Shown here in pieces: positions 6,465-28,736 of a DNA stretch of 64,000 bases. The notes below the pieces were generated by a model. It did not search any database. It saw only the letters and a program-made list of their open reading frames with translations, and had not been told where the DNA came from. Numbering within the stretch: position 1 is the stretch's first letter; the number at the start of each line of letters is the position of its first letter. Source of the stretch: a virus; the IMG/VR virus record IMGVR_UViG_3300025133_008097, positions 1-64,000 of that record. One strand, given 5' to 3'. The position numbers and the translations under genes are program-made.

Positions 6465-7727
6465 ATGTCTGATAAAATCAAGATTTTCACTATTAGTGAT
6501 CATCCTCTTTCACCTTCTGGGGTGGGTACCCAAACTCGATATATTATCGAAGGCCTGCTCAAGACAGGTAAATATCAAGTGGTATCTTTTGGGGGAGCCA
6601 TCACACATCCAGACCACACACCACAGAAAACTGAATTGTGGGGGGAAGACTGGATTATTTGGCCCGTCGACGGCTATGGAACACCAGATCAAGTCCGAGC
6701 AATGATCAGCCAACAGAAACCGGATATTTTGTGGTTTATGACAGACCCCCGGTTTTATGAGTGGCTTTGGAGCATTGAAAATGAAATCCGCGCGCAAGTA
6801 CCGATGGTGTACTATCATGTGTGGGACAACTACCCCTATCCAAATTTTAATGGGCGGTATTATCGGTCCAACGATCATGTCGCGTGCATCTCTACTCTTA
6901 CACACGACATCCTCCAGAATGTAGCACCCACAGTTGACAGTAGTTATATCCCACACGCAGTGGATACTGACATTTTCAAAAAGTTTGAATCTCAAGAAGA
7001 GATCGAAACATTCCGACAAGAGCGCATGGGCCCAGAGGCCTCCAAAAAGTTTCTCTTTTTCTGGAACAATCGCAACGCCCGCCGCAAACAGTCGGGTAGC
7101 CTTATCTATTGGTTTAAAGCATTCCTTGATAAAGTGGGCCACGATAAAGCGGCCCTTATTATGCATACGGACCCCAAAGATCACAACGGTCAAGACCTAG
7201 AACACATTATTGGTGAACTAGGCCTTGTTGACGGGGAAGTCTTGTTCTCGAAAGAGAAGTTGGAAGCTCCCGATCTTGCAGCTGTCTATAATATGATCGA
7301 TTGCACCATTAATATATCAGATGCCGAAGGGTTTGGCCTCGCCACCCTGGAGGCTATGTCGTGCGAAAAGCCCATCATTGTAAACCTCACAGGAGGAATG
7401 AAAGACCAGATTACTGATGGTAAAACGGTTTTTGGTGTTGGTATTGAGCCCGTGTCCAAGGCAGTCATCGGCTCACAGAATGTGCCTTATATTTATGAAG
7501 ACAGACTATCAGAGGAGTCAGTTGTTAACGCGATGCTGGAAATGTATAACAAAACACCAGATGAGCGCGCTGAAATTGGCCGCTTAGCCCGAGAATATGT
7601 AGAAAACAAATTTAATTTGGAAGACTATGTTGAACGATGGGACACTCTACTCATGAGTATTCACGAGGACAAGGGATCTTGGACAACACGACAGAATTAT
7701 AAATCTTATGACGTAGGAGTCTTTTAA
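6465..7727 (+). CDS. Glycosyltransferase, GT4/GT-B fold
   Basis: SPSGVG, HAVDTDIF, RNARRK and SDAEGFGLATLEAMSCEKPII motifs. Confidence 0.9.
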   Translation: MSDKIKIFTISDHPLSPSGVGTQTRYIIEGLLKTGKYQVVSFGGAITHPDHTPQKTELWGEDWIIWPVDGYGTPDQVRAMISQQKPDILWFMTDPRFYEWLWSIENEIRAQVPMVYYHVWDNYPYPNFNGRYYRSNDHVACISTLTHDILQNVAPTVDSSYIPHAVDTDIFKKFESQEEIETFRQERMGPEASKKFLFFWNNRNARRKQSGSLIYWFKAFLDKVGHDKAALIMHTDPKDHNGQDLEHIIGELGLVDGEVLFSKEKLEAPDLAAVYNMIDCTINISDAEGFGLATLEAMSCEKPIIVNLTGGMKDQITDGKTVFGVGIEPVSKAVIGSQNVPYIYEDRLSEESVVNAMLEMYNKTPDERAEIGRLAREYVENKFNLEDYVERWDTLLMSIHEDKGSWTTRQNYKSYDVGVF

Positions 7728-8998
7728 TGAAAAAAAGAATTGTCGTTAAAGCACCGGCCCTATCTAGGTCGGGTTATGGAGAACAGGCCCGTTTTGCTCT
7801 CCGCGCTCTTCGCTCTAGAGAAGATATTTTTGATATCTATTTGATAAACATTAGTTGGGGCAAGACCGGAATGCTGTCTAACTATGATGAGGAACGCCTT
7901 TGGCTAGACTCTCTTGTACTGAAGACAACGCAATATATGCAAATTTGTCAACAGCAACAACAACCTCCTCAGTTTGATATATCTCTTCAGATTACTATTC
8001 CCAACGAGTTTGAAAAAATAGCTCCGGTTAATATTGGGTACACAGCTGGGATTGAAACCTCGAAAATAGCTCCTCACTGGATCGACAAAATCAACGGAAT
8101 AGCAGATAGTGTTATCACCATTTCTAACCATTCTAAGAAAGTTATGGAACAAACCTCATATGATTTTCCGGAACAAGGAGTTACCAACTTTCGTATTCAG
8201 AAGCCCATTGAGGTCGTAAACTATTCTTTTAAAGAAATAGAGGCTGACCCAAATGGTTTGGACATCCCCTTTGAAACAACAAAAAACTTTTTGTGTGTCT
8301 CTCAATGGGGCCCCCGCAAGAATATGGAAAACACTATTCGTTGGTTTTTAGATGAATTCTACGACGACAGTGATGTTGGCTTAGTTCTAAAAACGAATAC
8401 GGCAAACGAGAGCATTATGGATCGGGAACACACTGGCGCCCGTTTAAAAAATCTTATTCGTGACTTTCCCGATCGGAAGTGTAAGATCTATTTGGTCCAT
8501 GGACAACTGTCTGAGGAACAATTAACGTGGTTGTACCGGCACCCCACTATGAAGGCCTTAATTAATATTGGCCACGGCGAAGGCTTCGGGCTGCCACTAT
8601 TCGAAGCAGCATACAATGGCCTTCCCTTAGTGACTGTAACTTGGTCGGGCCAGATGGACTTTATTTGCCGGCCAAATAAAAAAGGCAAGATGGTGCCACG
8701 CGTCGTAAAGGTAGACTATGATCTTAAGCAGGTGCAGCCAGAGGCTCACTGGGAGGGAGTGGTTCAGGCGGACTCTATGTGGGCGTTTGCTAAGAAAGCC
8801 TCTTACAAACGAGCATTGCGAGATGTTGTTAATAAGGAGATTCATTACAAGAATCAAGCTGAGTCATTAAGGAAGTATATCCTCAAGAACTTCAAGGAAG
8901 AGGATGCGTATGCTAAATTTGTCTCCTATGTGGTTGACGAGGAAGAGTTTAATGTTGAGAGTTGGCTAGACGGTCTGGATCTAGAAGTACATGATTAG
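7727..8998 (+). CDS. Glycosyltransferase, GT4-like/GT-B fold
   Basis: SRSGYG, WGPRKN and GHGEGFGLPLFEAAYNGLPLV motifs. Confidence 0.88.
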   Translation: MKKRIVVKAPALSRSGYGEQARFALRALRSREDIFDIYLINISWGKTGMLSNYDEERLWLDSLVLKTTQYMQICQQQQQPPQFDISLQITIPNEFEKIAPVNIGYTAGIETSKIAPHWIDKINGIADSVITISNHSKKVMEQTSYDFPEQGVTNFRIQKPIEVVNYSFKEIEADPNGLDIPFETTKNFLCVSQWGPRKNMENTIRWFLDEFYDDSDVGLVLKTNTANESIMDREHTGARLKNLIRDFPDRKCKIYLVHGQLSEEQLTWLYRHPTMKALINIGHGEGFGLPLFEAAYNGLPLVTVTWSGQMDFICRPNKKGKMVPRVVKVDYDLKQVQPEAHWEGVVQADSMWAFAKKASYKRALRDVVNKEIHYKNQAESLRKYILKNFKEEDAYAKFVSYVVDEEEFNVESWLDGLDLEVHD

Positions 8999-9000
8999 AA

Positions 9001-9837
9001 ATGATTGTTTTTATAGCCGACTTTTTTGTTGACGAGATTCTCGGCGGAGGCGAACTCAATAATCATGAATTAATCGAGCTTCTTCGCGCCAAGGGCCACA
9101 ACGTAAAAACAATCAAGAGTGATCGTGTCACCCCCTCTTATCTAAAAAAGATTAATGCATCTCTGTTTATAGTAGGGAATTTCATCGGCTTGTCCGAGGA
9201 ATCTAAAAACGAATTAAAGAGCAAAAATTATGTCATTTATGAACACGATCATAAATACCTGAGATCTCGAAATCCGGCCCACTACAACGATTTTACAGCT
9301 CCGGGCGAAGAACTTGTGAATGTGGAGTTTTATGAGAAAGCGCTACGCATTTTTTGCCAAAGCGATTTCCACCAGAGTATTATCCATCGCAACCTAAAGA
9401 CAGATAATATCATTAGTGTTGGGGGCAACCTGTGGAGCGTCGAATCACTAGATCTCCTAGAGTGCCTGTCGTTGGCTCAGAAAAAGGACGGCTGTTCTAT
9501 CCTGAGTTCATCTATCCCGCATAAGAATACGCGGGAAGCGGTTGGCTACTGTGAAATAAAAAATCTAGATTATGATCTTTGCGCAAGCAACGATTATGAA
9601 TCATTCCTTGAACAGCTTAGTAAGAACGAAACCTTGGTATTCTTTCCTCAGACTCCGGAGACACTTTCGCGCATAGTGGTAGAAAGCCGTATGATGGGAA
9701 TGCGCGTTATCACCAACCGTTTGGTGGGAGCTACCCAAGAGAAGTGGTTTAAGCTAAAGGGAAAAGATTTAATCGATGTGATGCGCGGTAGAAGGCATAG
9801 TATCCCCCAGATGGTTTTGGAGTGCATTACTCAGTGA
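9001..9837 (+). CDS. Putative GT-B glycosyltransferase (divergent)
   Basis: GGGE acceptor-loop motif and C-terminal PETLSRIVVESRMMG resembling the GT-B E-x7-E motif. Confidence 0.55.
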   Translation: MIVFIADFFVDEILGGGELNNHELIELLRAKGHNVKTIKSDRVTPSYLKKINASLFIVGNFIGLSEESKNELKSKNYVIYEHDHKYLRSRNPAHYNDFTAPGEELVNVEFYEKALRIFCQSDFHQSIIHRNLKTDNIISVGGNLWSVESLDLLECLSLAQKKDGCSILSSSIPHKNTREAVGYCEIKNLDYDLCASNDYESFLEQLSKNETLVFFPQTPETLSRIVVESRMMGMRVITNRLVGATQEKWFKLKGKDLIDVMRGRRHSIPQMVLECITQ

Positions 9838-10757: not shown

Positions 10758-11671
10758 GAATTTATGTGCGCGATACGTGGACGCATGCCGGCGCACCCAT
10801 TTATAAGGGTTTTGCCGCCGCCTGGCATAAAATAGGATATGAAGTCATCGGCTATGACAAAGTCGAAGAAATAAGCGACTCCGGACCCTATGAAATAATG
10901 TGTAATGATTATTTGCTAGCACCCTTTACCGAGCTTCCCCGAGCAATTACTCAAGCCCGAAAAGTTTATTTATATGTGCAGCCTACTAACTTTCCGATGC
11001 CGTGGGGTGGCCACCCTAACTTTATTTCTTTAATTAAAGACAGCCCCTTAATTGAGCAATTAAACAACATGAAGAATGTTGCGCTGTGGAACTGGGGAGA
11101 TATGAATCCCCAGCTCAGGCAACAACAATTTCCAGAGTGGAAAAAGATAAATCAAGTTGTTTTAGCGTTTGATTCTATCTCTTACAAGCCGATTATAGAT
11201 CCAGCATATGAGTATGACGTCTGTTTTGTGGGTGGCTGGGCTGACAACGGATTTAATGAAAAAAGACAGATTATGATGGAACATTTTAATGTGCTCATGA
11301 AGACTGGCTTAAAATGTGGAGTGTTTATCAACAAAGGACTCACTCACGAACAAGAGAATCTGGTGCTGTATAACAGCAAAGTAGCTTTGAACATTCATGA
11401 TTCGTACCAGCGAATCCTGGGCAACGACTCAAATGAAAGAACTTTTAAATCTTTAGGCTTGACGGGCGCTCTTGTATGTGATAACATAAGACAAATAAGT
11501 GGTATGTTTCCTGATCTTCCGCTGTATAGCTCACCGGCAGAAATGGTAGAACAAATTCACTCTTATTTAGAAAATGAGAAATTGTTGAAAGAGACAAAGG
11601 ATCATTATCGCCAACTTGTAGCCGACGAACACACTTACGTCAATCGAGTAAAACAGATGAGAGAATTATGA
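10754..11671 (+). CDS. CgeB/YkvP-like glycosyltransferase
   Basis: YDVCFVGG, SKVALNIH, NERTF and HTYVNR motifs. Confidence 0.8.
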   Translation: MRIYVRDTWTHAGAPIYKGFAAAWHKIGYEVIGYDKVEEISDSGPYEIMCNDYLLAPFTELPRAITQARKVYLYVQPTNFPMPWGGHPNFISLIKDSPLIEQLNNMKNVALWNWGDMNPQLRQQQFPEWKKINQVVLAFDSISYKPIIDPAYEYDVCFVGGWADNGFNEKRQIMMEHFNVLMKTGLKCGVFINKGLTHEQENLVLYNSKVALNIHDSYQRILGNDSNERTFKSLGLTGALVCDNIRQISGMFPDLPLYSSPAEMVEQIHSYLENEKLLKETKDHYRQLVADEHTYVNRVKQMREL

Positions 11672-11961
11672 TAATTTTTATTGACATCGATGAAACTATA
11701 TGCGATACTCCGGAGAATAGAGATTACACCTTGTCGGTGCCAATCCAAGAAAATATCGAGAAGGCGAACAAACTATACGAGGAAGGACACACAATCGTAT
11801 ACTGGACCGCCAGAGGGAGTGTCTCTGGGAGAGACCTTACTGAGCTAACAAACCAGCAAATTAAGGACTGGGGAGCAAAGTGTCATGAAGTGCGTCTGGG
11901 GAAGCCCTATTACGATCTTTTTATTGACGACAAGAATATGAACACAAAGGACTGGAAATGA
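11668..11961 (+). CDS. Minimal HAD-superfamily phosphatase (capsule-biosynthesis type)
   Basis: Motif I DIDET, motif II WTAR, motif III K and motif IV IDDK in only 97 aa. Confidence 0.75.
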   Translation: MIIFIDIDETICDTPENRDYTLSVPIQENIEKANKLYEEGHTIVYWTARGSVSGRDLTELTNQQIKDWGAKCHEVRLGKPYYDLFIDDKNMNTKDWK

Positions 11962-12695
11962 GAATCGTACTGGTTGTGCCTGCATACAACTCGATGAAAT
12001 ATATCGAACAATGTATGGAGAGCGTATTAAATCAAAGTTATGACGACTACTATGTGCACGCGTACGACAATGAGAGTACGGACGGCACGTATGAGTACCT
12101 CTTAGAACTAGAAAAACAGCACGATCATTTGAAGGTCTCTCAACTGCCCAATATTCATCCGAACTCTTACCGCGAAGCTTTCGACGCCGGGTTTGAGAAT
12201 ACAGAGGCGGATTGCCTAACCTTCGTATCGACCGATGATTACTTAGATAAAGATTATGTTGCTAAGTGTATGAAGATTATGTCTCACGATCCCGAACGCA
12301 TCAAATGTATGCAGAGCGGTATTGTGGGAGTCCAGAATAGTATGCAGGTTAATAAGCAGATTCATCTTTACAAGAGTATGAATGAGTTTAAACAACAATG
12401 TATGACGCGCAGCCCCGTAAACACACCCACTGTTGTCTACAATATCAGCATCTATCCTCAAATTCAGGCAGCCCGGGAAGCACACGCTGCAGCCGGCCTG
12501 ATGGATGTGGGTGTTGGGGATTATGATATGTGGTGCGGACTAGCGGATCGAGGAATCTTTATTTACCCAGTGGATGCTTGCCTAGGTTATTACTATAGAT
12601 GGCACTCAGAACAGTGCACATGGCAGGTACACCAATATACAACCAATTATGATGAAATAGTTCGGTCCTATTGGAAAAAGAAGTGGACATTGTGA
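11958..12695 (+). CDS. Glycosyltransferase family 2 (GT-A)
   Basis: VVPAYNS, YDNESTDGT and STDD (DxD-like) motifs. Confidence 0.88.
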   Translation: MRIVLVVPAYNSMKYIEQCMESVLNQSYDDYYVHAYDNESTDGTYEYLLELEKQHDHLKVSQLPNIHPNSYREAFDAGFENTEADCLTFVSTDDYLDKDYVAKCMKIMSHDPERIKCMQSGIVGVQNSMQVNKQIHLYKSMNEFKQQCMTRSPVNTPTVVYNISIYPQIQAAREAHAAAGLMDVGVGDYDMWCGLADRGIFIYPVDACLGYYYRWHSEQCTWQVHQYTTNYDEIVRSYWKKKWTL

Positions 12696-12711
12696 TATCG
12701 TGTGTTATAAT
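12684..12711 (+). promoter_or_regulatory. Sigma70-type promoter upstream of neuB
   Basis: TGGACA-N16-TATAAT with extended -10 TG (TGTTATAAT). Confidence 0.7.
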
Positions 12712-12731
12712 AGCAGTGTAGGGGAAACATA

Positions 12732-14231
12732 ATGACAAGAAGAAAATTATTCGTTTTTGAAATGGCGAACAATCACATGGGAGACGTCGAGCACGGCTTG
12801 CGTCTTATCCGAGAATTTGGAGCAGTTAAGGATAAATTCCCAGAATTTGACTTTGCCCTCAAATTTCAGTTTCGGAATATGGATACCTTTATTCATCCCG
12901 ACTATCGCGACAGGATGGATCTCAAATATGTGAAGCGATTCTCCGAAACGCGCCTTTCTCGAACCCAGTTTTTGAAATTAAAGCTGGAGGCTGAGAACTT
13001 GGGATTTATCCCCATGTGCACCGGCTTTGATGAAGACAGCGTCGATCGAATAGAAGAAATGGGATTTCCCATCATTAAGATTGCTAGCTGTTCCTTTACT
13101 GACTGGCCTCTTCTAAATAAAATCGCGGCAACAGATTTGCCCATTATTGCATCAACAGCCGGTTCCACTCTCAAGGAAATTGACAATGTAGTCGCCTTTT
13201 TCACTAATCGCGAAAAAGACCTTACAATCATGCACTGCGTGGGGGAATACCCGACAAAGACCACAAACCTTCAGCTTAATCAGCTGCGTTTGTTCTCAGA
13301 GCGGTACCCTAACGTGCGTGTAGGATACTCAACTCATGAGGACCCCAATGATCCTAATATTGTCCCCCTAGCAATTGCGATGGGAGCAGAGGTGTTTGAG
13401 AAACACGTAGGCGTCCCGACGGAGCAATATGCACTGAACGCCTATTCGGCTACACCAGAACAAGCGCAGAGGTGGCTAGAGTCCGCAAGGCGCGCCTTCG
13501 CAACGTGTGGAGATGTCCGGGGTAGGCCAGGGGCCTCCAAGAGCGAATTGGCCGATCTACGGCGCTTTAAGCGCGGCGTCTTTGTTGCCCGCGATATCAC
13601 TGCGGGGGAACGAGTAACACGTGAGGACGTATTTTATGCCTTCCCTTGTGGAGAAGGTCAAGTGTTGGCCAACGACATGTCTAAGTACACCGAGTTCGTG
13701 GCCACCACAGACTACAAAACAAACGACGCAGTAATGTTTGAAACAACCCGGGAAACCAAGCTACGCCAGAAAGTGTGGGACATTGTTCAGGATGTAAAAA
13801 GCCTGTTTAAGGACGGCAACGTTGTTATCCCAGGTAAAGCCGAGTTGGAAATTTCTCATCATTACGGAATAGACAAGTTTCGAGAGTTTGGTATTACAAT
13901 GGTTACGGTCGTAAATCGTGAATACTGCAAGAAATTAATTGCCGTCCTTCCAAAACAGTATCATCCAGAACAATATCATCTGCAGAAAGAAGAAACATTT
14001 TTGATTCTTTTTGGCGAATTGGAGTTGACATTGGATGGCGAAACCACTATATTAAAGACAGGCGATGTGGTAACTGTGAAACCAGAAGTGCGACATGCTT
14101 TTACAACAACGACGGGTGCAATAATTGAAGAGATTTCTTCTACTCATATCGTGAATGATTCGTTCTACACAGACGAAACGATCATAGATAACAAGAATCG
14201 AAAAACAATATTGCAACATTGGTTGAATTAG
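12732..14231 (+). CDS. neuB: NeuB-family PEP-dependent nonulosonate synthase fused to SAF and C-terminal cupin (lyxose-isomerase-like) domains
   Basis: EMANNHMGD, KFQ, KIAS, HCVGEYPT, GYSTHE and EKH motifs; SAF segment ARDITAGERVTRED; cupin HPEQYHLQKEETF...EEISS. Confidence 0.85.
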   Translation: MTRRKLFVFEMANNHMGDVEHGLRLIREFGAVKDKFPEFDFALKFQFRNMDTFIHPDYRDRMDLKYVKRFSETRLSRTQFLKLKLEAENLGFIPMCTGFDEDSVDRIEEMGFPIIKIASCSFTDWPLLNKIAATDLPIIASTAGSTLKEIDNVVAFFTNREKDLTIMHCVGEYPTKTTNLQLNQLRLFSERYPNVRVGYSTHEDPNDPNIVPLAIAMGAEVFEKHVGVPTEQYALNAYSATPEQAQRWLESARRAFATCGDVRGRPGASKSELADLRRFKRGVFVARDITAGERVTREDVFYAFPCGEGQVLANDMSKYTEFVATTDYKTNDAVMFETTRETKLRQKVWDIVQDVKSLFKDGNVVIPGKAELEISHHYGIDKFREFGITMVTVVNREYCKKLIAVLPKQYHPEQYHLQKEETFLILFGELELTLDGETTILKTGDVVTVKPEVRHAFTTTTGAIIEEISSTHIVNDSFYTDETIIDNKNRKTILQHWLN

Positions 14232-14239
14232 GAGAAGAT

Positions 14240-14446
14240 ATGAGCCAACCAGATAAGAGTAAAAAAGTGGTAAGCCAAATTGGCTATGATGATGCTGATG
14301 TAGAGCCGTTTACCAACAACTATCAGAGCTTGTATAGGGATTTGTTAGAAGAAAATCGGCTTCTTAAAGCTGAATTAGAAAAATATCAGGACGCCATAAA
14401 AGAGCTTTATGGCATTATACCAGAGGAGGACGACATCTATGAGTGA
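14240..14446 (+). CDS. Hypothetical coiled-coil protein
   Basis: AGGAG SD then ATG at 14240. Confidence 0.6.
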   Translation: MSQPDKSKKVVSQIGYDDADVEPFTNNYQSLYRDLLEENRLLKAELEKYQDAIKELYGIIPEEDDIYE

Positions 14447-14897
14447 AAAAATAACGACAGATAGCGGATTAGTAATGGCCACCCTAATAGAAGGAACTGG
14501 CGATACTCCATCTACTGGAGATAAAGTATTGATACATTATGAAATTTGGGTTGGAGAGGGAGTAACCACTTCCGAATATAATTCTGAGACCAATACCTAT
14601 AGTGACAGTATTCATGATAGTACTTATGATGAAAGAAATCCTTTTCACGGCCCAATAGAGGTGGTAATTGGCCGGCCAACACCGGATGATGATATCTATA
14701 CAATGGGAGATTCTATTCAAGGCATAGATGAAGCACTGGTGACGATGAAAGAGGGAGGAAAGAAGGAGCTTTTTATTCCGGCTTCACTAGCTTACGGAGA
14801 TTTGGGAGCCAGTAGTTTTCATACGTTCCACGGCTATCGCACCCCTCCCAGCACCCCTCTCAGGTGTCATATTGAGTTGGTAGAGATAAAGAAGTAA
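14439..14897 (+). CDS. FKBP-type peptidyl-prolyl cis-trans isomerase
   Basis: EGTGDTP, VLIHY, IQGIDEALVTMKEGGKKELFIPASLAYG and IELVEI motifs; GAGGA SD before ATG at 14439. Confidence 0.88.
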   Translation: MSEKITTDSGLVMATLIEGTGDTPSTGDKVLIHYEIWVGEGVTTSEYNSETNTYSDSIHDSTYDERNPFHGPIEVVIGRPTPDDDIYTMGDSIQGIDEALVTMKEGGKKELFIPASLAYGDLGASSFHTFHGYRTPPSTPLRCHIELVEIKK

Positions 14898-19517: not shown

Positions 19518-20811
19518 TTCACATATGAAGATGTTTCAATCCCCCCTAGAGGGCAACCCTTTAGACGAGGCTGTCGACAAAACTGTCGCCTTCGACATGA
19601 GGAACACCACCATTAAGGACGAAAAAGATCGCCAACACTGGCTAAAGGGGTATAAGCCAGCAGTGTACGAAAAGATGGCAAAATACCCAGAAAAGATCGC
19701 CAACGGCGAAAGCATCGCGATTATTCAGTTTCAATATGACTATCTGTGCAATATGGATTGCGAGCATTGCTGCATTGATAAGTTCTATGTTCCTAAAGCT
19801 TGGGAGGCCGCATCCGGCCGGCGCAAGTTTGAACTAGATGACGTACGTGAATTGTCACGACAGGCTGATGAGATGGGTCTCGCAAACTTTGTTATTACTG
19901 GCGGCGAGCCTCTTATCATGAAAGAGTTCGATGAACTTATTGAGGCTATTGACCCCTCTAAGTTTTACCTCGTTAGTGACTCAAATGGCTGGAACCTAGA
20001 CTACAAGCGCGCTGCTCATCTTAAAAAGATCGGTCTAGACAAAGTCCAGCTTAGCTTAGATGGAATCACCGCGGAAGCTCACGATACTTTCCGCCGAAAG
20101 CCCGGCGCCTTCGATCGCGCAATGCGCGCAATTGACGCTTGTAAAGAAGCGGGCTTGCACATTATTTTATCCACTGTAATTTGGAAGGATCGAATCTACA
20201 CAGACGAATGGGTTCAGTTTTTAGACTTCGCAAAAGAGAAGCAAGTTGGAACTTACATTGTATACGCAAAGCCCGTTGGCGCCTACGAGGGCCAGACGGA
20301 TGCGATGATGACAGAGAAGGAAGGAAAGATCCTTCAGAAATTCGAGGAAGAATACGACATCTTTACTCATATGACCCCTTCATATGGCCGTGACATCGGC
20401 TGCATCGCTGTGAAGAGAATGATTCCCATCTCTCGTTATGGAGATGTAATGCCCTGCCCTTACCAGCATGTATCTCTCGGAAATTTCTTTGAGGAGCCTT
20501 TAGCGGATATTATTAATCGGGGTCTTAACATTAAGTGGTTTGATCCGAAGAAGAATATGCCCTGCATTTGTGGGGTTGATAAAGGATTCATTAAGAATGT
20601 TATCTCCCAGACTTATGGAGATAACGAGGTGCCGGTAAGATACGACCGCGTATTTACTGACGATGATTTTCTTGACAAAGGCAATATGGGTGATGTACAA
20701 TTAGGAAGTGGATGCGGTCAAGAGGTGGACACCTGGAAGAACGCTCCTCTAATCACCCTGCGCGGGAAGAAGATGAAAGATCACAACTTTGTTGACGACA
20801 CGGGAGCATAA
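19510..20811 (+). CDS. Radical SAM enzyme with C-terminal Twitch/SPASM-like cysteines
   Basis: CNMDCEHC (CxxxCxxC), TGGEPL, SNG, VQLSLDG; C-terminal GCIA...MPCPY...CICG. Confidence 0.9.
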   Translation: MANSHMKMFQSPLEGNPLDEAVDKTVAFDMRNTTIKDEKDRQHWLKGYKPAVYEKMAKYPEKIANGESIAIIQFQYDYLCNMDCEHCCIDKFYVPKAWEAASGRRKFELDDVRELSRQADEMGLANFVITGGEPLIMKEFDELIEAIDPSKFYLVSDSNGWNLDYKRAAHLKKIGLDKVQLSLDGITAEAHDTFRRKPGAFDRAMRAIDACKEAGLHIILSTVIWKDRIYTDEWVQFLDFAKEKQVGTYIVYAKPVGAYEGQTDAMMTEKEGKILQKFEEEYDIFTHMTPSYGRDIGCIAVKRMIPISRYGDVMPCPYQHVSLGNFFEEPLADIINRGLNIKWFDPKKNMPCICGVDKGFIKNVISQTYGDNEVPVRYDRVFTDDDFLDKGNMGDVQLGSGCGQEVDTWKNAPLITLRGKKMKDHNFVDDTGA

Positions 20812-20816
20812 GATAA

Positions 20817-21125: not shown

Positions 21126-21158
21126 GTACTGGTACTATATACAGAAAAGGAGCCCACC

Positions 21159-21548: not shown

Positions 21549-21561
21549 ACTTTGATATACT
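21533..21561 (+). promoter_or_regulatory. Sigma70-type promoter upstream of the rfbH-like gene
   Basis: TGGACA-N17-TATACT with extended -10 TG (TGATATACT); same -35 hexamer as the neuB promoter. Confidence 0.65.
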
Positions 21562-21587
21562 ATCAATAAGATGGGAATAGCAGATAT

Positions 21588-22946
21588 ATGAGTGATAAAA
21601 AACAACAAATTTTAGATCTAGTTAAAGAATACATTCTTGAAAAGAGACAATCGGAGTCTTGGACTCCCGGGGAAGACTGGGTTTCGTACTCCGGGCCCAT
21701 TTTCGACGAGAACGAATATGTAGCCGCCTTCGAGAGTCTCCTCACAGAGTGGCTCATCTTCGGAAAGAAGGGTCGTGAATTCGAATTGGAGTTCGCACAA
21801 CACCTCGGAAAAGATGCCGGCATTCTTACCAACTCGGGCTCCTCGGCTAATTTGCTAGCAGTTAGTGCTCTTAAGTCTCGTAAATGGTTTAATCTCAAAC
21901 CTGGCGCCAAATTTATCACCCCGGTGGTTTGTTTTCCGACCACCATCAACCCTCTCATCCAAAATGGTTTCGAACCAGTATTTGTGGATGTGACGATTCC
22001 AGATTTGAATTTAGATCTGGATCAAGTAGAGAGAGTTCTGGAAGAAGACCCAGAGATTAAAGGAATTATGTTCGCTCATGTATTGGGTAATCCTCCTGAT
22101 ATGGATCGCTTAATGTTCCTGGTTAAAAAATATGATTTAATTTTTGTAGAAGATGCCTGCGATGCATTGGGCTCTTATTATGATGGTAAAAAGCTTGGCT
22201 CTTTTGGTACAATCTCTACTTGCTCCTTTTTCCCCGCCCACCATATGACAATGGGAGAGGGCGGCTTTGTAGCCACTGACAGCAGCGTGAAACGTATGGT
22301 TCTTGCTAGTTATCGTGACTGGGGGAGGGCTTGCTATTGCAATACTGCCAAGCCCGGCTCTGTAACCAGCGGCACTGCCTGCGGAGATCGATTTAAGAAT
22401 TGGCTACCAGGAATGCCTACTACAACTTTTGATCATCGCTATGTTTTTGATGAAATAGGGTATAATTTGAAGCCATTAGATTTGGCTGCTGCAATGGGCT
22501 TGGAACAAATTAAGAAACTTCCAATGCTTGATGCATCTCGACGAAAGAATTTTGATCGCCTGAAGGAAATTTTTGCACCCTATGAGGAGTATTTTCATCT
22601 ACCAGAGGCCACCGAGAAGGCGGACCCCTGTTGGTTTGGGTTCCTTCTTACTATCCGCGATGGTGCTAATTTTGGTCGTCATGATTTAGTGAACTTTTTA
22701 GAGAGCAAAAAAATTCAAACTCGTTCCTATTTTAGTGGTCTCGTACTGGCTCATCCCGGGTATATACATCTTGCGGGTCCTTACGGAAATTTAGAAGAGA
22801 CCTTCCCGGTGGCCGCTAAAGTGACTCATGATAGTTTCTTTTTGGGCACCTTCCACGGGCTCACCACTGAGAAGTTGGACTACATAGAGGCCAGTGTGAA
22901 AGAGTTCTTTGATCGCCCAGCCGGACTGACGATATTGGAGAATTAG
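21588..22946 (+). CDS. rfbH: E1/RfbH/DdhC-type NDP-4-keto-6-deoxyhexose 3-dehydrase (PMP- and [2Fe-2S]-dependent)
   Basis: DegT-fold motifs NSGSSANL, HVLGNP and EDACDA; SFFPAHHMTMGEGG has His in place of the Schiff-base Lys; WGRACYC...C...DHRY Fe-S ligand pattern. Confidence 0.88.
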   Translation: MSDKKQQILDLVKEYILEKRQSESWTPGEDWVSYSGPIFDENEYVAAFESLLTEWLIFGKKGREFELEFAQHLGKDAGILTNSGSSANLLAVSALKSRKWFNLKPGAKFITPVVCFPTTINPLIQNGFEPVFVDVTIPDLNLDLDQVERVLEEDPEIKGIMFAHVLGNPPDMDRLMFLVKKYDLIFVEDACDALGSYYDGKKLGSFGTISTCSFFPAHHMTMGEGGFVATDSSVKRMVLASYRDWGRACYCNTAKPGSVTSGTACGDRFKNWLPGMPTTTFDHRYVFDEIGYNLKPLDLAAAMGLEQIKKLPMLDASRRKNFDRLKEIFAPYEEYFHLPEATEKADPCWFGFLLTIRDGANFGRHDLVNFLESKKIQTRSYFSGLVLAHPGYIHLAGPYGNLEETFPVAAKVTHDSFFLGTFHGLTTEKLDYIEASVKEFFDRPAGLTILEN

Positions 22947-22947
22947 G

Positions 22948-23244
22948 ATGGCCTTTATTATCGTAGAGCCCTGCGTGGGAACCTGTGACACCGCCTGTGT
23001 TGATGCATGTCCAGTGGATTGTATTCATGGTCCCATCGATATCGTTGGCGCCGGCGCAGAGGTCACCGCCCCCGGATTTAACCCCACAGGTCTGCAGCTA
23101 TATATTGACCCAGAAGAGTGTATTGATTGTGCAGCTTGTGAGCCAGAGTGCCCGGTAGAAGCCATTTATGACGAGACCAGCGTCCCCGCTAAGTGGGATT
23201 CTTTCATAGATAAGAATTATAATTTCTTTGGACGTAACCGGTGA
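22948..23244 (+). CDS. Dicluster (7Fe/8Fe) ferredoxin
   Basis: CVGTCDTACVDACPVDC and CIDCAACEPECP motifs. Confidence 0.93.
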   Translation: MAFIIVEPCVGTCDTACVDACPVDCIHGPIDIVGAGAEVTAPGFNPTGLQLYIDPEECIDCAACEPECPVEAIYDETSVPAKWDSFIDKNYNFFGRNR

Positions 23245-24191
23245 AAATTGTTTATATTACCGGATGCCTAGGGTTTATGGCATCCTATGCGGTGAGGAGA
23301 GCGCTAGCGCGCGGCTGGAAAGTCCGCGGCGTGGACAAACTTACCTATGCCGCTAATCCCACCCTACTAGAAGAATTCTACCAGCATCCTAATTTTGAGT
23401 TTGAGGAAACTGACATCAAGGATCTTGAGCGTCTTTATGATTGCGACTACGTCATTAATTATGCGGCAGAGTCTCATGTAGGAAATAGTATTGTTAATAG
23501 TGATGAGTTCATGGATAGCAATATCTTAGGAGTCCGGAATTTACTTGATTTGGTGAGGTTTAAACCAATCAACTGTAATGATCGACCCACCTTTTTCCAT
23601 ATTAGTACCGACGAAGTGTACGGAGATATTGACGCCGGCGTACACACCGAACACGACCTTCTCAAGCCAAGCAACCCCTACTCGGCAGCTAAAGCCGCCG
23701 GCGATATGTTAATTCACGCGTGGGCGCGCACCTATGGAATTCAGTATATTATCCTCCGACCTACAAACAATTATGGCATCGGCCAATATCCCGAGAAGCT
23801 CGTCCCTCTAGCAATAAAAAATTTGTTAAGAGAAAAGAAAGTAAGACTTCACGATAAAGGCGAACCAGTTCGAAACTGGCTGCATGCTGATGATACAGCC
23901 GCGGCCGTGATGGCTATTATAGATTCTGGTACAGTTAACCAAATTTATAATGTAGCTGGAGGGTTTGAGCAGTCAAACAAAGAGACGGTGCGTAAGATTA
24001 TATCGGCTTACCACGGTCCCGATGCCCAATGGGACGACTATGTAGATTTTTCGGTAGTCCGACCAGGACAGGATGTGCGATATGCGCTTGATGACTCAAA
24101 GCTGCGGGCATTAGGCTGGGCCCCCACAAAAAATTTTGATGAAGAAATACCCAAAATTGTGGAATACTATAAAAACCATTTTATTTGGTAG
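23241..24191 (+). CDS. rmlB: NDP-glucose 4,6-dehydratase, RmlB/RffG-like
   Basis: DKLTYAAN, AAESHV, STDEVYG, YSAAK, NNYG...PEKL, RNWLHADD and RPGQDVRYALD motifs. Confidence 0.88.
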   Translation: MKIVYITGCLGFMASYAVRRALARGWKVRGVDKLTYAANPTLLEEFYQHPNFEFEETDIKDLERLYDCDYVINYAAESHVGNSIVNSDEFMDSNILGVRNLLDLVRFKPINCNDRPTFFHISTDEVYGDIDAGVHTEHDLLKPSNPYSAAKAAGDMLIHAWARTYGIQYIILRPTNNYGIGQYPEKLVPLAIKNLLREKKVRLHDKGEPVRNWLHADDTAAAVMAIIDSGTVNQIYNVAGGFEQSNKETVRKIISAYHGPDAQWDDYVDFSVVRPGQDVRYALDDSKLRALGWAPTKNFDEEIPKIVEYYKNHFIW

Positions 24192-24236
24192 CGCCAGCGC
24201 TGCGTACTTATGACGTATCTATAAAGAGGACTTTCC

Positions 24237-26033
24237 ATGAAAATATTACTAACGTGCGCTACGATTGATGAATTTCATCGAATTGAGAACGCACATGATA
24301 GCCACTATCCCCTTGGATTAGGGTATCTCCACTCTTACCTAGAGAGCTTAGATCGAGGCTATGAAGTGCTGACTCGGTTTCTGAATAATGTTACAAAAGA
24401 AAAATGTATGGAAACCCTCGCCAAAGATCTGGAAGAATTTAAACCAGATATAGTAGGGATCTCGATGATGACCCATAGTCGCGTCGGTGCCTTCCGCCTT
24501 ATAAAATATCTAGAAGAAAAACACCCTCAGGTTAAAATTGTTATCGGAGGTATGCACGTGAGCGTGATGTATCGCCAACTAACAGAGCATTATAGAAATG
24601 TAGTGTGCGCTATCGGCGAAGGCGAGATAACACTGGGTGAACTGGTTCAGTGTTGGGACGAGGAAGGAGACCTTAATAACGTCGCCGGAATTGCTTTTTA
24701 CGACCACAAGAAAGAAGAAGTGGTGACCACCGAAGAACGCGGCCTAATTGATGACCTTGATATCTTGCCCTTTCCTAAACACGAACTGTTTTTGTGGGAA
24801 GGAAAGACAATTGCCGGGCTTCTCACAAGTCGCGGCTGCCCCTATAAATGCAATTTTTGTGTCCTCGACGCAGCCTCTCGCCGTAAGGTTCGATGCCGAT
24901 CAGCAAAGAATATCGTCGACGAGGTAGAGCAGATACTCGAACGTCACCCTACTGTTAATACTGTATGGATTCACGATGATGCGTTCATGATTATCAAGGA
25001 TAGAACAATTGAGTTTTGCGAAGAAGTCATTCGCCGCGGCATAAAAACGCAGTTTATTTGTAGCGCCCGGTTTCGCCCTATTTCGCGCGAGGTCGTCATG
25101 CTGATGAGAGATGCTGGGTTTATCCAGGTTATGTTTGGTTTAGAGTCGGGCTCGGAACCCGTTATGAAGTTGATGAAAAAAGGCCTCACCCAGAAAGCAG
25201 TGCGTCATGCGATGAAGCTGTTTGCGGAGACTGGGATTAAACCTACTGCCTTTTTAATTTCTGGCTTGCCGGGAGAGACTCATGAGACAGTCGCTGAAAC
25301 AATCGATTTCGTTCAAGAACTTCAGTATCTCCATTATCTTTATTATGATGACATCGGTGTGGCTAGCATTTATCCGGGTACCGAGTTATTTACTTTAGCC
25401 AAAGAAGCGAAGATGGAGGTCCCCGGTTATGGGATTATCGATGACGAATTCTGGCTTACTGGCTTGGATGTTCCATTTTATGAGGTGGACCATAAATACG
25501 AGCAGCTGCTTGAATGGAAAGAACAAATCCGAGATGCAGTATCTCTCGATCGGATATTAAAAAATCCAGATACATTTTTGCAACAAAGAAAACTAATACC
25601 TCACATTATTCAGTATGCATGGCGGTTTAATCTTAACGGCATAGTTTCTGAGGTAATGAAAATTCTCAATAATAACCAGAATTTAACGTTAAGCATGCTG
25701 CGGAGCCTCTTTTTAGGAGAGACTCGAACAAAAGAACTTCAGTCGGTTCATACAGCTTTTGAAAAAGGGCTTATTAAAACACTTTTGTCGCAAATGGACA
25801 TTGGGGCCCAAAAAGACTTCATTGTAAAACATACCGAACAAGTTAAGAAAGATAAAGAAACAGTTGCGCGCTGGGTTGCCATTCAAGAAAAAGAGCAATC
25901 CGGAGTCGAGGGCAAAAACTCCACGCATGCGGCAGCAGTAGTTACTAAGGATGGAACAATGATTGCGCCGTTTGTCGACGATGGCTTTGATGATGAACGA
26001 AAGCGAAAGAGAGCCTTTAACATCATTCAATAA
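24237..26033 (+). CDS. Cobalamin-binding radical SAM enzyme (class B methyltransferase-like)
   Basis: B12 domain YPLGLGYL, IVGIS, IGGMH and GEGE; TSRGCPYKCNFC; GLESGS. Confidence 0.9.
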   Translation: MKILLTCATIDEFHRIENAHDSHYPLGLGYLHSYLESLDRGYEVLTRFLNNVTKEKCMETLAKDLEEFKPDIVGISMMTHSRVGAFRLIKYLEEKHPQVKIVIGGMHVSVMYRQLTEHYRNVVCAIGEGEITLGELVQCWDEEGDLNNVAGIAFYDHKKEEVVTTEERGLIDDLDILPFPKHELFLWEGKTIAGLLTSRGCPYKCNFCVLDAASRRKVRCRSAKNIVDEVEQILERHPTVNTVWIHDDAFMIIKDRTIEFCEEVIRRGIKTQFICSARFRPISREVVMLMRDAGFIQVMFGLESGSEPVMKLMKKGLTQKAVRHAMKLFAETGIKPTAFLISGLPGETHETVAETIDFVQELQYLHYLYYDDIGVASIYPGTELFTLAKEAKMEVPGYGIIDDEFWLTGLDVPFYEVDHKYEQLLEWKEQIRDAVSLDRILKNPDTFLQQRKLIPHIIQYAWRFNLNGIVSEVMKILNNNQNLTLSMLRSLFLGETRTKELQSVHTAFEKGLIKTLLSQMDIGAQKDFIVKHTEQVKKDKETVARWVAIQEKEQSGVEGKNSTHAAAVVTKDGTMIAPFVDDGFDDERKRKRAFNIIQ

Positions 26034-26050
26034 TGATGTAAAATGTATCT

Positions 26051-26944
26051 ATGACAGTACTAGTCACCGGTGGGAGCGGCTTCATTGGGCGCAGACTTGA
26101 GAGATATCGTCCAGATTGGGTATATCTTTCGTCGACTGATTGCGACCTCCTTGACCGTTCCGCGGTTGATAAAATGTATGCAGATATACAGCCCGAGGCT
26201 GTTGTACACCTTGCTGGTCGAGTCGGCGGAATCAAAGACAACTCTTCCAATCAGGTAGAGTTCTTCGAACAAAACGTAGTGATGAATTTAAACGTCGTCG
26301 CCGGCGCTTACCAAGCAGGTGTTCCGCGACTCCTGGGAGCATTAAGTACCTGCGCCTTCCCCGATGTAGTTTCTCAGTATCCGTTTACTGAAGATGAGAT
26401 ATTTGACGGACCGTGCGCAACCACAAATTTTGCGTATGGATATTCTAAACGATTATTGCATGCACTAATACTAGCTTATCGAAGTCAGCATAAAGTAGAT
26501 TATAGCACGTTCAGCCCCTCTAACGTGTATGGCCCCGGTGATCATTTTGACACCGATACTTCTCACTTTGTTCCCGCTCTCATTAGCAAAGCCGCCAAAC
26601 TAAAAGACGGAGATACTCTAGAGCTGTGGGGAACCGGAGCGCCGCTCCGCCAGCAGCTATATGTGGAGGATCTTTGTCAAATTATCCCTCTATTATTAAC
26701 ACACCATCACAGCGATGACCCGATTATTGTGGCACCCAACGAAAATTTAAGTATTGACGAGATGGCAAAAATTTTAATTTCTCATTTAAACATTGATGTG
26801 AAAATTGTTTATAATAATCAATTAGATGGGCAGCATCGTAAAGATGGTGCCAACGCTTTGCTGCTTCAAACAATTGGAGACTATAACTTTACTTCATTTG
26901 ACAGCGGCATAAAACAGACTTATAATTGGTATCAACCCTTTTAG
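26051..26944 (+). CDS. fcl: GDP-L-fucose synthase (epimerase/reductase) family
   Basis: TGGSGFIG, HLAGRVGGI, LSTC, YGYSKR, NVYGPGD, SHFVPALI and WGTGAPLRQ motifs. Confidence 0.88.
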   Translation: MTVLVTGGSGFIGRRLERYRPDWVYLSSTDCDLLDRSAVDKMYADIQPEAVVHLAGRVGGIKDNSSNQVEFFEQNVVMNLNVVAGAYQAGVPRLLGALSTCAFPDVVSQYPFTEDEIFDGPCATTNFAYGYSKRLLHALILAYRSQHKVDYSTFSPSNVYGPGDHFDTDTSHFVPALISKAAKLKDGDTLELWGTGAPLRQQLYVEDLCQIIPLLLTHHHSDDPIIVAPNENLSIDEMAKILISHLNIDVKIVYNNQLDGQHRKDGANALLLQTIGDYNFTSFDSGIKQTYNWYQPF

Positions 26945-26952
26945 GTATTAGA

Positions 26953-27756
26953 ATGGATTGTTCAAAACTAGAGGACAACGTACGCGCTTATTTGTTGAGC
27001 TATCCAAAGAGCGGCAATAGTTGGCTGCGATATATAATTGAATATACGACAGGCATACCCACGATCTATGAAGGTCATATGCGCGCGGACAAGATAGCGT
27101 CGATAAATGCTGCCGCCTTTGGTCTACTTAAAACTCTGGATGCCCCCAGTATTGATTATCCGGTGAGTTCTCAGCCTAGGATCGCCTGGCGAGAAGAGAG
27201 AATGAATTACGATCAAGGTCTTATATTAAAAAAGCATACCTCCAGAGATATCGCATCCCACCCAGAACTTGATCCTCCTCCAATTAAGCCCGAGACCAAA
27301 TTAATATTGTTAGTCAGAGATCCTCGCGACGCCATCGTGCGCCACAATATGCACGAGGCTTGGGAACAGTTTGCAAAAAATGTTAAATATTTTAGTGAAT
27401 GGCCGAGCGACAAACTGTTAATATATTATGAAGCACTTCTTAAATATCCGGAACATAGCATTCGCGAAGTTAGCCTGTTTTTAAATGAAAAGCCGGAGGA
27501 CAAGATAGTTGAGCAATTTATGAAAGACTATGATAAGCATGTCGAGTTATCCGCCTCTACCTATAGAACATATGGGGCAAAGTCCAACCGGCGGGCCTAT
27601 GAGACACAATCGATCAATGCGCCAAATTTTGGAATCGGCCACCATCACCACAATGCCAAGCACGCCGGCGAAAGAAATAAGAAACTAAGGGGAATATGCG
27701 ACGACCCGCAAGTTGCCGAGATATTACGGCCATATTTAGAGGATAAGGAATGGTAA
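26953..27756 (+). CDS. PAPS-dependent sulfotransferase
   Basis: 5'-PSB loop SYPKSGNSW and 3'-PB motif [16 protein letters not shown]. Confidence 0.8.
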
Positions 27757-28736
27757 TGAAAACAGCATTAGTAACAGGTATCACAGGACAAGACGGCTCT
27801 TATTTAGCCGAGCTTCTGTTATCTAAAGGATATAAAGTGATAGGCGTCAAGAGGCGCACCTCCCTGATAACCACCGATCGTATAGATACGATATTTGAAA
27901 ATTCCAACTTGATATTGGAATATGGCAACCTCCATGATGCAGGCTGTTTTTGGAAGCTTTTAAACAAATATAAGCCTGATGAAATCTATAATCTGGGAGC
28001 ACAGTCACACGTTCGCGTCTCCTTTGATGTCCCCGAGGAGACAGTCGACTCGATCGTTATGGGAACTTTGCGCTTGATGAATGCTTATAAGGAGCTTTGC
28101 CCCGAAGCGAAATTCTATCAGGCGTCATCGTCTGAGATGTACGGCGATAATCTGAACGTTCCCTTTGATGAGGAATCCCTTTTACAGCCAGCGTCGCCCT
28201 ATGCTTGCGCGAAGGTCTTTGCTCACCACCTAGTAAGAAACTACCGCGAGGCTTATGGACTCCAAGCATCGAGCGGGATCTTGTTTAATCATGAATCCCC
28301 CCGTCGCGGCGAAACGTTTGTTACAAGAAAAATTACAATGGCGGCAGCCCGAATCAAACTTGGCCTACAAGAGCACTTACACCTAGGTAATCTAGATGCA
28401 AAGCGCGACTGGGGCTATGCTGGCGACTATGTCGAAGCGATGTGGCGTATGCTGCAGCAAGACAAGCCAGATGATTTTGTCATCGCCACAGGACATTCCT
28501 ATACCGTGCGAGAATTTTTGCATTATGTATTTGAATACGCGGGTTTAAATGATATTGATAAGTATGTTAAGATAGACCCACGACTATTTAGGCCACACGA
28601 AGTTCCCTATCTGCTGGGAGACCCATCCAAAGCAAAAGAAAAGTTGGGGTGGGAGCCTAAAGTCGATTTTAGAGGATTGGCAGAAATGATGTATGATGCC
28701 GATTACGACTTTATTAAAAATACGGAGGTAAAATGA
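27756..28736 (+). CDS. gmd: GDP-mannose 4,6-dehydratase
   Basis: [55 protein letters not shown] and RDWGYAGDY motifs. Confidence 0.96.

Follow-up and report, generated by a model that had tools for sequence, protein, structure and literature searches.

Sugar-gene clusters are a described feature of large marine cyanophages. There are 24 such genes in P-SSM2 and 22 in S-SCSM2R, 13 of the latter encoding transferases; in these phages, as in S-SCSM1 and S-SSM7, tens of sugar-nucleotide and transferase genes are co-located in lytic marine myoviruses larger than ~180 kb, the clusters vary between relatives and a HIGH-type nucleotidyltransferase gene lies nearby (PMC1079782, PMC7824862, PMC12801897). 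The genes gmd, fcl and rfbH also appear in lists of auxiliary metabolic genes of marine viruses (PMC10653327). The DNA analyzed here, the first 64 kb (the window) of the 116.8-kb IMG/VR record IMGVR_UViG_3300025133_008097, contains a sugar island at 6465-28736 that resembles the cyanophage clusters in this co-location, in its variability between relatives and in the nearby HIGH-type gene. It also matches the P-SSM2-type definition, in which many nucleotide-sugar enzymes and several transferase families are clustered in a large lytic T4-like myovirus (PMC7824862). The original prediction of this island, made from the sequence of the window, took it that phage glycosylation typically involves a few transferases acting with common sugars. 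Cyanophage clusters of 22-24 genes, together with the listed gmd, fcl and rfbH genes, do not support that premise. The island differs from the cyanophage clusters in lineage and in chemistry. The window phage has a capsid protein only ~34% identical to cyanophage gp23, and the published descriptions of the cyanophage clusters (PMC1079782, PMC7824862, PMC12801897) do not include a [2Fe-2S] E1 dehydratase, thiamine diphosphate (ThDP)-dependent branching, radical S-adenosylmethionine (SAM) enzymes, Fe-S assembly proteins or a sulfotransferase.

The island consists of 23 tightly packed open reading frames (ORFs) of at least 97 amino acids, all on the + strand, plus a few small ones, compared with the roughly 25 genes first proposed (Table 1; coordinates are those of the window unless marked). 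Family assignments were made with Pfam and NCBIfam profiles, whose scores in bits are compared with curated cut-offs, and they bear out the predicted list of co-directional sugar genes almost item by item. Four of the encoded proteins (ORFs 16806, 23241, 26051 and 27750) fall in the short-chain dehydrogenase/reductase family. The results make it very probable that the island is a pathway for modified deoxysugars, of the kind set out below, combined with a transferase locus.

The island is phage DNA. Family scans of the rest of the record revealed SbcCD, the large terminase, portal, T4-type major capsid protein, sheath and tape measure. Directly 3' of the island are genes for an endolysin-like protein, gp25-like and gp6-like baseplate wedge proteins, and fibre-like ORFs of 2087 and 3883 amino acids. 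The capsid protein is most similar to that of an uncultured huge phage (51%), followed by Flavobacterium phage immuto (47%), with Microcystis phage Mel-JY01 and Rhodothermus phage RM378 also near. The GC content, GC at third codon positions (GC3) and codon usage of the island are those of the upstream phage genes. The gene order recurs in related viral contigs from other metagenomes, and PhoH at one flank and the gp6-like baseplate gene at the other were found in all five related records searched. Many marine DNA runs carry a near-identical cassette; positions 10001-30000 are fully covered in four marine runs, none of which is the likely source of the record, and contigs of four runs bridge the junctions near 12.7, 21.5, 26.9 and 28.7 kb, including the exit into the downstream genes. 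No RNA run is among the runs listed for 12732-22700. The GenBank phage collection yielded no close relative of the island. The alternative that a host O-antigen locus was mis-joined to a phage contig draws on the presence of cassette homologues at 50-58% identity in many bacterial and archaeal genomes. However, the order and flanks recur in related viral contigs from other samples, independent runs bridge the junctions, composition equals that of the flanking phage genes, and no cellular donor is closer than 58% identity, leaving the probability of a mis-join practically negligible. Chimerism and host contamination, named with the original prediction as what might undo it, are thus excluded for practical purposes, and its claim of a phage-borne rare-sugar island beside virion genes stands. 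The lineage is most likely an uncultured marine T4-like ('far-T4') myovirus in which the island is vertically inherited.

The deoxygenation step is identified by catalytic residues as well as by family scores. The E1 protein aligns end to end with Yersinia E1 (3BCX), and its 'PAHH' matches 'PAHH' of that enzyme, so that His220 is kept; the H220K mutant of Yersinia E1 (3BB8) reads 'PAKH'. Yersinia Cys193, Cys251, Cys253 and Cys261 are all aligned with cysteines in the window protein, which has a six-residue insert before the last, and C191, C249, C251 and C265 are invariant in seven phage homologues. A catalytic histidine in place of the aminotransferase lysine and four cluster cysteines set [2Fe-2S] E1/SpnQ enzymes apart from ColD and aminotransferases (PMC8987622). 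Matches to E1 in the GenBank phage collection are at most 41% identical, and cyanophage DegT homologues are just 27-39% identical. A search of IMG/VR with an alignment of the phage E1 proteins revealed at least 565 stretches that encode a related E1. The best 80, at 54-88% identity, were examined, and counts for these viral loci are lower bounds as many contigs are cut. The gene adjoining E1 in 70 of them encodes the RmlB-like protein, whose top PDB matches are all dTDP-glucose 4,6-dehydratases.

Electrons for E1 probably come from the adjacent ferredoxin. The 116.8-kb record has no PF00175 (NAD_binding_1) domain and hence no E3 (AscD)-type flavin/[2Fe-2S] reductase of that description. SpnQ acts on a dTDP sugar and receives electrons from ferredoxin or flavodoxin systems (PMC8987622). 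Given this precedent and the lack of E3 in the record, the ferredoxin is a sensible donor that would replace E3, as in SpnQ. The ferredoxin gene is specific to the window, being absent from the close relative L005 and from the more distant viral relatives L008-L013. The predicted cofactor genes, IscA, IscU and ferredoxin, all gave the expected family matches, with the cluster cysteines of IscA and IscU kept, and the IscA-IscU pair recurs beside E1 in three other viral contigs (L102, L104, L105). No cysteine desulfurase turned up among the ORFs put through family scans, so sulfur would have to come from the host.

The branch module is centered on the ThDP enzyme. In the PDB this protein is most similar to JanthE (8RPH; 383 bits), a characterized YerE-like enzyme (PMC12188165), followed by 5AHK (280 bits), and true acetohydroxyacid synthases score at most 243 bits. 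Its matches in the GenBank phage collection are limited to ~30% identical acetolactate synthases. The enzyme is most likely a carboligase predicted to add a carbon branch to a 4-keto-3,6-dideoxy sugar. The NeuB-like protein belongs to a distinct NeuB-cupin subfamily, as judged by its scores. It falls far below the equivalog cut-offs for NeuB (TIGR03569; 140.7 versus 399.65) and PseI (TIGR03586; 129 versus 340.25), and its best PDB match is the uncharacterized 3G8R (381 bits), with Neisseria NeuB at 58 bits. The record has no CMP-ulosonic acid synthetase (CTP_transf_3, PF02348). Together with the linkage to the YerE-like gene, these observations speak against the nonulosonic sugars that were originally predicted.

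That linkage is also found in cells. A survey of the ThDP enzyme in one genome per prokaryote species revealed ~590 or more loci in many phyla, and the best 80 (42-58% identity) were examined. E1 is encoded within 10 kb of the ThDP gene in 54 of them. In 26 loci a full-length NeuB-cupin fusion, at 50-58% identity, precedes the ThDP gene on the same strand, and in 25 of these the two genes abut or are separated by at most one small gene, a spacer of ~200 amino acids that is HAD/NT5C-like in L014. Another 14 loci have a shorter NeuB-like gene, which with one exception immediately precedes the ThDP gene. The short-chain dehydrogenase/reductase (SDR), C-methyltransferase and Twitch radical SAM enzyme accompany the cassette in 13-15 of the 80. 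For example, an operon in a Bacteroidales metagenome-assembled genome (L020) encodes, in order, a GT-C transferase (PMT_2), NTP_transferase, 4,6-dehydratase, E1, NeuB-cupin, an unknown ORF, the ThDP enzyme, SDR, a second unknown ORF, B12-radical SAM enzyme, C-methyltransferase, radical SAM enzyme, GT2 and GtrA. Because the same genes are grouped in cellular loci, the variable module of the window corresponds to a conserved cellular cassette for one elaborate sugar, which in cells, to go by the neighboring genes, is predicted to be attached by an undecaprenyl phosphate (Und-P)/GtrA/GT-C route. No homologue of IscA, IscU, ferredoxin, FKBP, ORF 19164, ORF 9001 or the sulfotransferase is encoded within 10 kb of the 80 cellular ThDP genes. 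The FKBP is thus confined to the phage side, and a HAD/NT5C-like gene takes its position in the cellular cassettes. Two cultured species, Chromobacterium vaccinii (L070) and C. sinusclupearum (L076), carry a cassette of E1, NeuB-cupin, YerE-like, C-methyltransferase and radical SAM genes and offer a tractable system.

The cellular linkage suggests a role for the NeuB-cupin protein. In the scheme published for erwiniose, caryophyllose and gastriose, an aldolase makes a hydroxylated alpha-keto acid that is used by a YerE-like enzyme together with a reductase and sometimes a methyltransferase (PMC9306805). Based on this scheme and on gene linkage, it seems more likely that the NeuB-cupin protein supplies an alpha-keto acid as branch donor than that it makes a nonulosonic acid.

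Viral relatives conserve the island as a set of fixed and interchangeable parts. The relatives L008-L013, at 45-72% identity, share with the window two GT4 enzymes, the ORF 9001 transferase, one or two Glyco_trans_1_2 proteins, GT2, SDR, E1, the RmlB-like protein, the B12-radical SAM enzyme, the Fcl-like protein and the same downstream genes. Gmd is kept in four of these five and was not found in L008. Where the window and L005 have NeuB-cupin, FKBP and YerE-like genes, other relatives have a split transketolase, and between SDR and E1 the window and L005 have the C-methyltransferase, ORF 19164, Twitch radical SAM, IscA and IscU genes. Among the best 80 viral loci, 53 have an SDR, 41-45 the GT4s, 44 the Fcl-like gene and 40 Gmd. 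YerE-like genes were found in 27 of the loci and split transketolases in 20, and no locus has both. An SDR follows the YerE-like gene in 17 of the 27 and the transketolase in 16 of the 20. Branching of keto sugars is known or has been proposed for transketolases as well as for YerE-like enzymes (PMC12247030). Since two unrelated ThDP types share the place beside E1, this pattern argues that carbon branching of the E1 product would be the function conserved across the lineage. A further module in L009 (11734-17454) encodes a GT29-like (sialyl)transferase, a CMP-transferase-cupin fusion, an SDR, a class III aminotransferase, and DHQS-like and SIS proteins. This set is reminiscent of a pathway of the Kdo8N or ulosonic-acid type, and parts of it recur in 7-12 of the 80 viral loci.

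The remaining enzymes of the island are predicted to tailor the sugar or to make a second one. The C-methyltransferase has sugar 3-C-methyltransferases as its nearest structures (4RV9, KijD1, TcaB9). The Twitch radical SAM enzyme has CX3CX2C at residues 80-87 and just four to five C-terminal cysteines, and is nearest to BlsE in the PDB. The B12-radical SAM enzyme, at most 23% identical to any match in the GenBank phage collection, is nearest to AprD4, CysS, OxsB and TokK and could be either a methyltransferase or an AprD4-like dehydratase. Similarity to the B12-radical SAM enzyme of the cellular cassette is too weak to call orthology, both for the window protein (27% over 345 residues) and for a second such enzyme in L005 (24% full-length). 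The Fcl-like protein has GDP-L-fucose synthases as its best PDB matches (202 bits), and its gene is adjacent to Gmd or separated from it only by the sulfotransferase gene. The sulfotransferase gene is polymorphic: runs X10 and X11 have 16 other bases in place of 26945-27755 (809 bp) beside the full form. Other variation was seen within the island. Two runs have an in-frame 12-base deletion at 19571 in the Twitch radical SAM gene, and after ~22268, inside E1, the contigs of three runs no longer follow the window; a second strain with another 3' part of the island may therefore be present alongside. A joint at 22638-23466 in one run, with a shorter side of 25 bases, was weak and was not taken as a variant.

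The transferase cassette comprises the six enzymes originally predicted, five recognized by Pfam (one weakly) and the sixth, ORF 9001, by its AlphaFold GT-B fold. The top Foldseek matches of the ORF 9001 model are all GT-B transferases (E 1e-7), its look-alike clusters in the Atlas are ~95% viral, and it has no match in the GenBank phage collection. The GT2 enzyme is soluble, with no hydrophobic segment, and lacks the C-terminal membrane helices of GtrB-type enzymes. No hydrophobic segment is present in any island protein, and no protein in the record has more than three. Neither Bac_transf (PF02397), Wzx-type (PF01943) nor Wzy_C (PF04932) proteins were found in the five relatives searched, three of them complete. 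The phage island lacks the GT2, GtrA and GT-C genes of the cellular cassette and has six soluble transferases instead. Homologues (41-43%) of the short HAD-like ORF at 11668 are near the ThDP gene in two cellular loci, and the ORF is present in 17 of the 80 viral loci.

Contrary to the original prediction, the pathway is not self-contained. No sugar-1-phosphate nucleotidyltransferase (PF00483) is encoded in the record or in the three complete relatives (183-253 kb), and the record has no CMP-sugar synthetase or E3. The only nucleotidyltransferase seen in the record is that of ORF 2946, 3 kb upstream of the island. It follows from the absence of PF00483 that the pathway would start from host NDP-glucose and GDP-mannose.

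Promoter-like motifs differ between the island and the virion genes. The + strand has nine sites that match TTGACA-N16-18-TATAAT at 11 or more of 12 positions, against ~1.1 expected, and the - strand has none. Seven of these nine near-consensus sigma-70 sites are within 687-26926, and the others are at record positions 66602 and 69637, so that they cluster away from the virion genes. Module heads within the island account for four (12684, 14025, 20672 and 26898); L005 keeps them in corresponding positions, and E1 is preceded by similar sites in L008, L010 and L011. The overall number of promoter-like sites did not exceed that in shuffled sequences; only the near-consensus class is enriched, and it is strand-specific. 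A second motif, CTATTTA, occurs 14 times on the + strand and never on the - strand, 15-35 nucleotides upstream of several virion genes (window 28584, 30243, 32944 and 62768; record 92955, 98458 and 100798), and the variants CTAATTA and CTAGTTA precede other virion genes. CTATTTA is absent between 763 and 28584 and is a candidate late promoter. A weakly late-sigma-like gene is close by, at 29663-30364. The canonical TTGACA/TATAAT boxes argue against a Bacteroidota host, despite the similarity of the capsid to that of a Flavobacterium phage.

Table 1. Features of the sugar island and its surroundings (window coordinates; family scores in bits)
Feature	Position	Strand	Evidence
HIGH-superfamily nucleotidyltransferase (RfaE domain II-like, weak)	2946..3464	+	PF01467 56 bits; TIGR02199 53.7, below cut-off 181.5
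GT4 glycosyltransferase, first of conserved transferase cassette	6465..7727	+	PF00534 44.6 bits; 52-80% identical in L005, L008-L013
GT4-like glycosyltransferase	7727..8998	+	PF00534 23 bits, below cut-off; syntenic in all relatives
Compact GT-B fold transferase, without Pfam match	9001..9837	+	AlphaFold2 (AF2) model confidence (pLDDT) 91
Two Glyco_trans_1_2 (CgeB-like) transferases	9822-10757, 10754-11671	+	PF13524 65.8, 52.1 bits
Short HAD-like phosphatase-related ORF	11668..11961	+	Weak TIGR01689, NF046079
GT2 (GT-A) glycosyltransferase	11958..12695	+	PF00535 69 bits
Sigma-70-like site TGGACA-16-TATAAT ahead of NeuB-cupin gene	12684..12711	+	
NeuB-family synthase fused to C-terminal cupin	12732..14231	+	PF03102 plus PF07883
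FKBP-type prolyl isomerase with insert (SlyD-like layout)	14409..14897	+	PF00254
YerE-like ThDP carboligase	14900..16813	+	Three TPP domains
SDR overlapping ThDP gene, YerF-like side-chain reductase	16806..17687	+	PF01370
NDP-hexose C-methyltransferase	17708..18841	+	PF08484, PF08421
117-aa ORF overlapping radical SAM gene	19164..19517	+	No family match; viral-only look-alikes; 97% identical in L005
Radical SAM enzyme with SPASM/Twitch-type auxiliary-cluster C-terminus	19510..20811	+	PF04055 plus PF13186
IscA-type carrier	20817-21125	+	PF01521 85 bits; Cys31/95/97 kept
IscU scaffold	21159-21548	+	PF01592 172 bits; Cys37/63/106 kept
E1/SpnQ-type pyridoxamine phosphate (PMP)- and [2Fe-2S]-dependent NDP-4-keto-6-deoxyhexose 3-dehydratase	21588..22946	+	NF011936 RfbH 456.4 bits, cut-off 423
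4Fe-4S ferredoxin	22948..23244	+	Fer4 families
RmlB-like NDP-glucose 4,6-dehydratase	23241..24191	+	TIGR01181 295 bits, below cut-off 365
B12-binding radical SAM enzyme	24237..26033	+	PF02310 plus PF04055; 50-65% identical in L008-L013
GDP-L-fucose synthase (Fcl)-like epimerase/reductase	26051..26944	+	NF047922 177 bits, cut-off 500
Sulfotransferase	26926..27756	+	PF00685 43 bits
GDP-mannose 4,6-dehydratase (Gmd)	27750..28736	+	TIGR01472 443 bits, cut-off 415

Other genes surround the island. A SpoU-family RNA methylase (1328-1870) and a PIN-PhoH fusion protein (3500-4816) are encoded upstream. The 3883-amino-acid ORF at 43049-54700 has three Laminin_G_3 (ConA-like lectin) domains and a GC content of ~0.50, above that of its surroundings, and is likely a giant fibre or adhesin. 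These three domains were the only family matches in the giant ORFs.

The proposed pathway has two products. One would be GDP-L-fucose, made from host sugar nucleotides by Gmd and the Fcl-like enzyme. The other would be an acyl-branched, C-methylated 3,6-dideoxyhexose. For the latter, the RmlB-like 4,6-dehydratase would form a 4-keto-6-deoxy sugar, from which the E1/SpnQ-type 3-dehydratase would remove the C3 hydroxyl, with electrons probably delivered by the ferredoxin. The YerE-like enzyme would then place a side chain on C4, using a keto acid probably provided by the NeuB-cupin protein, and the SDR would reduce this side chain. The C-methyltransferase and the Twitch and B12-radical SAM enzymes may tailor the sugar, phage IscA and IscU may help load the Fe-S enzymes, and the optional sulfotransferase may add sulfate. 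Finally, the six soluble transferases would build an oligosaccharide at the cytoplasmic face, most likely on phage structural proteins. A more specific version is offered tentatively: the product may be a higher-carbon sugar not described before, in which the YerE-like enzyme would attach a NeuB-cupin-derived ulosonic-type keto acid as the C4 side chain of a 3,6-dideoxyhexose, by the same pathway as in the ~590 or more bacterial and archaeal loci with the cassette. An abundant marine phage lineage would then use this pathway, exchanged in some members for a transketolase-based module, for a variable 'glyco-serotype' on its virions, and would contribute its own Fe-S assembly proteins to it. The data establish the gene identities, the catalytic residues of E1, IscU and IscA, the phage origin, the conservation and the exchange of modules, whereas sugar structures, nucleotide carrier, NeuB-cupin function and especially the acceptor are inferred from them.

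The complete statement, with pathway, transferases and virion-protein acceptor, is given a little under an even chance. A cytoplasmic-face acceptor is favored because the transferases are soluble, carrier and export genes are absent, and the cellular GT2/GtrA/GT-C set has been replaced; chloroviruses, mimiviruses and mycobacteriophages provide the analogy that makes phage structural proteins the best guess. Several points weigh against this interpretation. No Ser/Thr-rich acceptor tract was found in the virion proteins. With no PF00483 enzyme, the carrier nucleotide and entry substrates are guesses, and the role proposed for the NeuB-cupin protein comes from gene linkage. The record is ~52% complete by CheckV. 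Because the island has sigma-70-type sites and lacks CTATTTA, it may belong to a different temporal class from its virion neighbors, and there are hints of early or host-polymerase expression rather than late expression with virion proteins. The missing membrane genes also leave room for a host lipid-carrier route, since O-antigen transferases are soluble as well. It is conceivable, if doubtful, that the phage sugars are instead placed on host lipid-linked O-antigen, capsule or S-layer intermediates and exported by the host, altering the cell surface during long latency or pseudolysogeny, for example to block superinfection or to keep progeny off debris. Host remodelling of this sort is also the prevailing hypothesis on what the cyanophage clusters do (PMC1079782, PMC7824862, PMC12801897). 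It suits the sigma-70-type sites and the absence of the virion-gene motif, the Und-P/GtrA/GT-C surface route fed by the homologous cellular cassette, and a gene content that is hypervariable like that of O-antigen loci. However, no priming transferase, flippase, polymerase/ligase or GtrA-type gene is encoded in the record or the three complete relatives, the six soluble transferases that took the place of the cellular set are conserved across the lineage, and host flippases and polymerases would need to accept a foreign glycan.

Two other readings are less probable. A soluble glycoside or oligosaccharide, such as a secondary metabolite, signalling or storage compound, is an unlikely product. 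Antibiotic sugar pathways typically feature ThDP-branched, C-methylated deoxysugars and B12 or Twitch radical SAM enzymes (PMC12247030), and a second cyanophage cluster has been suggested to have a metabolite role (PMC7824862), but scans of the record turned up no polyketide synthase (PKS), nonribosomal peptide synthetase (NRPS), terpene aglycone enzyme or exporter, and the YerE-like enzymes characterized so far serve cell-surface glycans (PMC12247030). Hypermodification of phage DNA with oligosaccharides as a defence against restriction or CRISPR, in the manner of T4 and relatives with glucose or arabinose, is more improbable still. T4 alpha-glucosyltransferase, a GT-B enzyme, ranks 20 among the fold matches of ORF 9001, diverse viral DNA glycans have been reported (Pyle et al. 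2024, as cited in PMC12619734), and two of the three complete relatives have a thymidylate-synthase-family gene. Yet these two PF00303 matches, at 298-383 bits, score as expected of ordinary ThyA, the record and the complete relative G008 have no PF00303 hydroxymethylase-type gene, and six transferases, sulfation and a bulky branched sugar go far beyond known DNA glycans. Glycosylation of the virion itself is the preferred, if putative, reading. In other viruses with glycosylated virions, glycans are cited as shielding capsid and tail proteins (Freeman et al. 2023, as cited in PMC12619734).

The sugar clusters of marine myoviruses have gone unexplained for twenty years, and this lineage offers a sharper handle on them: the island occupies a defined and conserved place in the genome, its six-transferase cassette is conserved, its modules are interchangeable (YerE-like or transketolase, with or without the Kdo8N-like set, sulfotransferase and Fe-S helpers), and the lineage is abundant in marine metagenomes. 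If the interpretation is correct, phages would make branched and radical-SAM-tailored deoxysugars, and the making of rare sugars, normally ascribed to bacterial O-antigen and antibiotic pathways, would be a viral trait as well. The NeuB-cupin/YerE-like linkage would also predict a new route to long-branched sugars in many bacteria.

Compared with other known systems, the chemistry of the island is closest to that of yersiniose, erwiniose and caryophyllose. With these it shares E1, a YerE-like enzyme, an overlapping reductase, a candidate keto-acid maker and a methyltransferase, the cluster signature proposed in PMC9306805. Unlike the yersiniose-type loci, the island has an RmlB-like rather than a CDP-glucose-type dehydratase, lacks E3 and a nucleotidyltransferase, has as proposed keto-acid supplier a phosphoenolpyruvate (PEP)-dependent NeuB-family/cupin protein rather than a class II pyruvate aldolase, adds two radical SAM enzymes and is virus-borne. 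In its soluble, virus-encoded transferases, predicted to act in the cytoplasm, the island is like chloroviruses, mimiviruses and mycobacteriophages. Chlorovirus PBCV-1, like the window phage, encodes Gmd and a GDP-fucose synthase-type enzyme. The giant viruses with virion glycosylation infect eukaryotes, unlike the window phage. The mycobacteriophage examples are not known to have a rare-sugar pathway of their own. They are described with two glycosyltransferases (PMC11256854), whereas six are predicted in the window island. Moraphages, too, are T4-related, large and aquatic; capsid trees place them near Rhodothermus phage RM378, whose capsid protein is also among those near that of the record, and their core includes PhoH, gp6 and four glycosyltransferase groups, with no deoxysugar pathway described (PMC12619734). 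A literature search found no paper tying phages to E1/ThDP-branched sugars or to a NeuB-cupin/YerE-like cassette. Whereas extensive sugar-gene clusters of big marine myoviruses have been on record since 2005, the chemistry and the modularity seen in this lineage look new.

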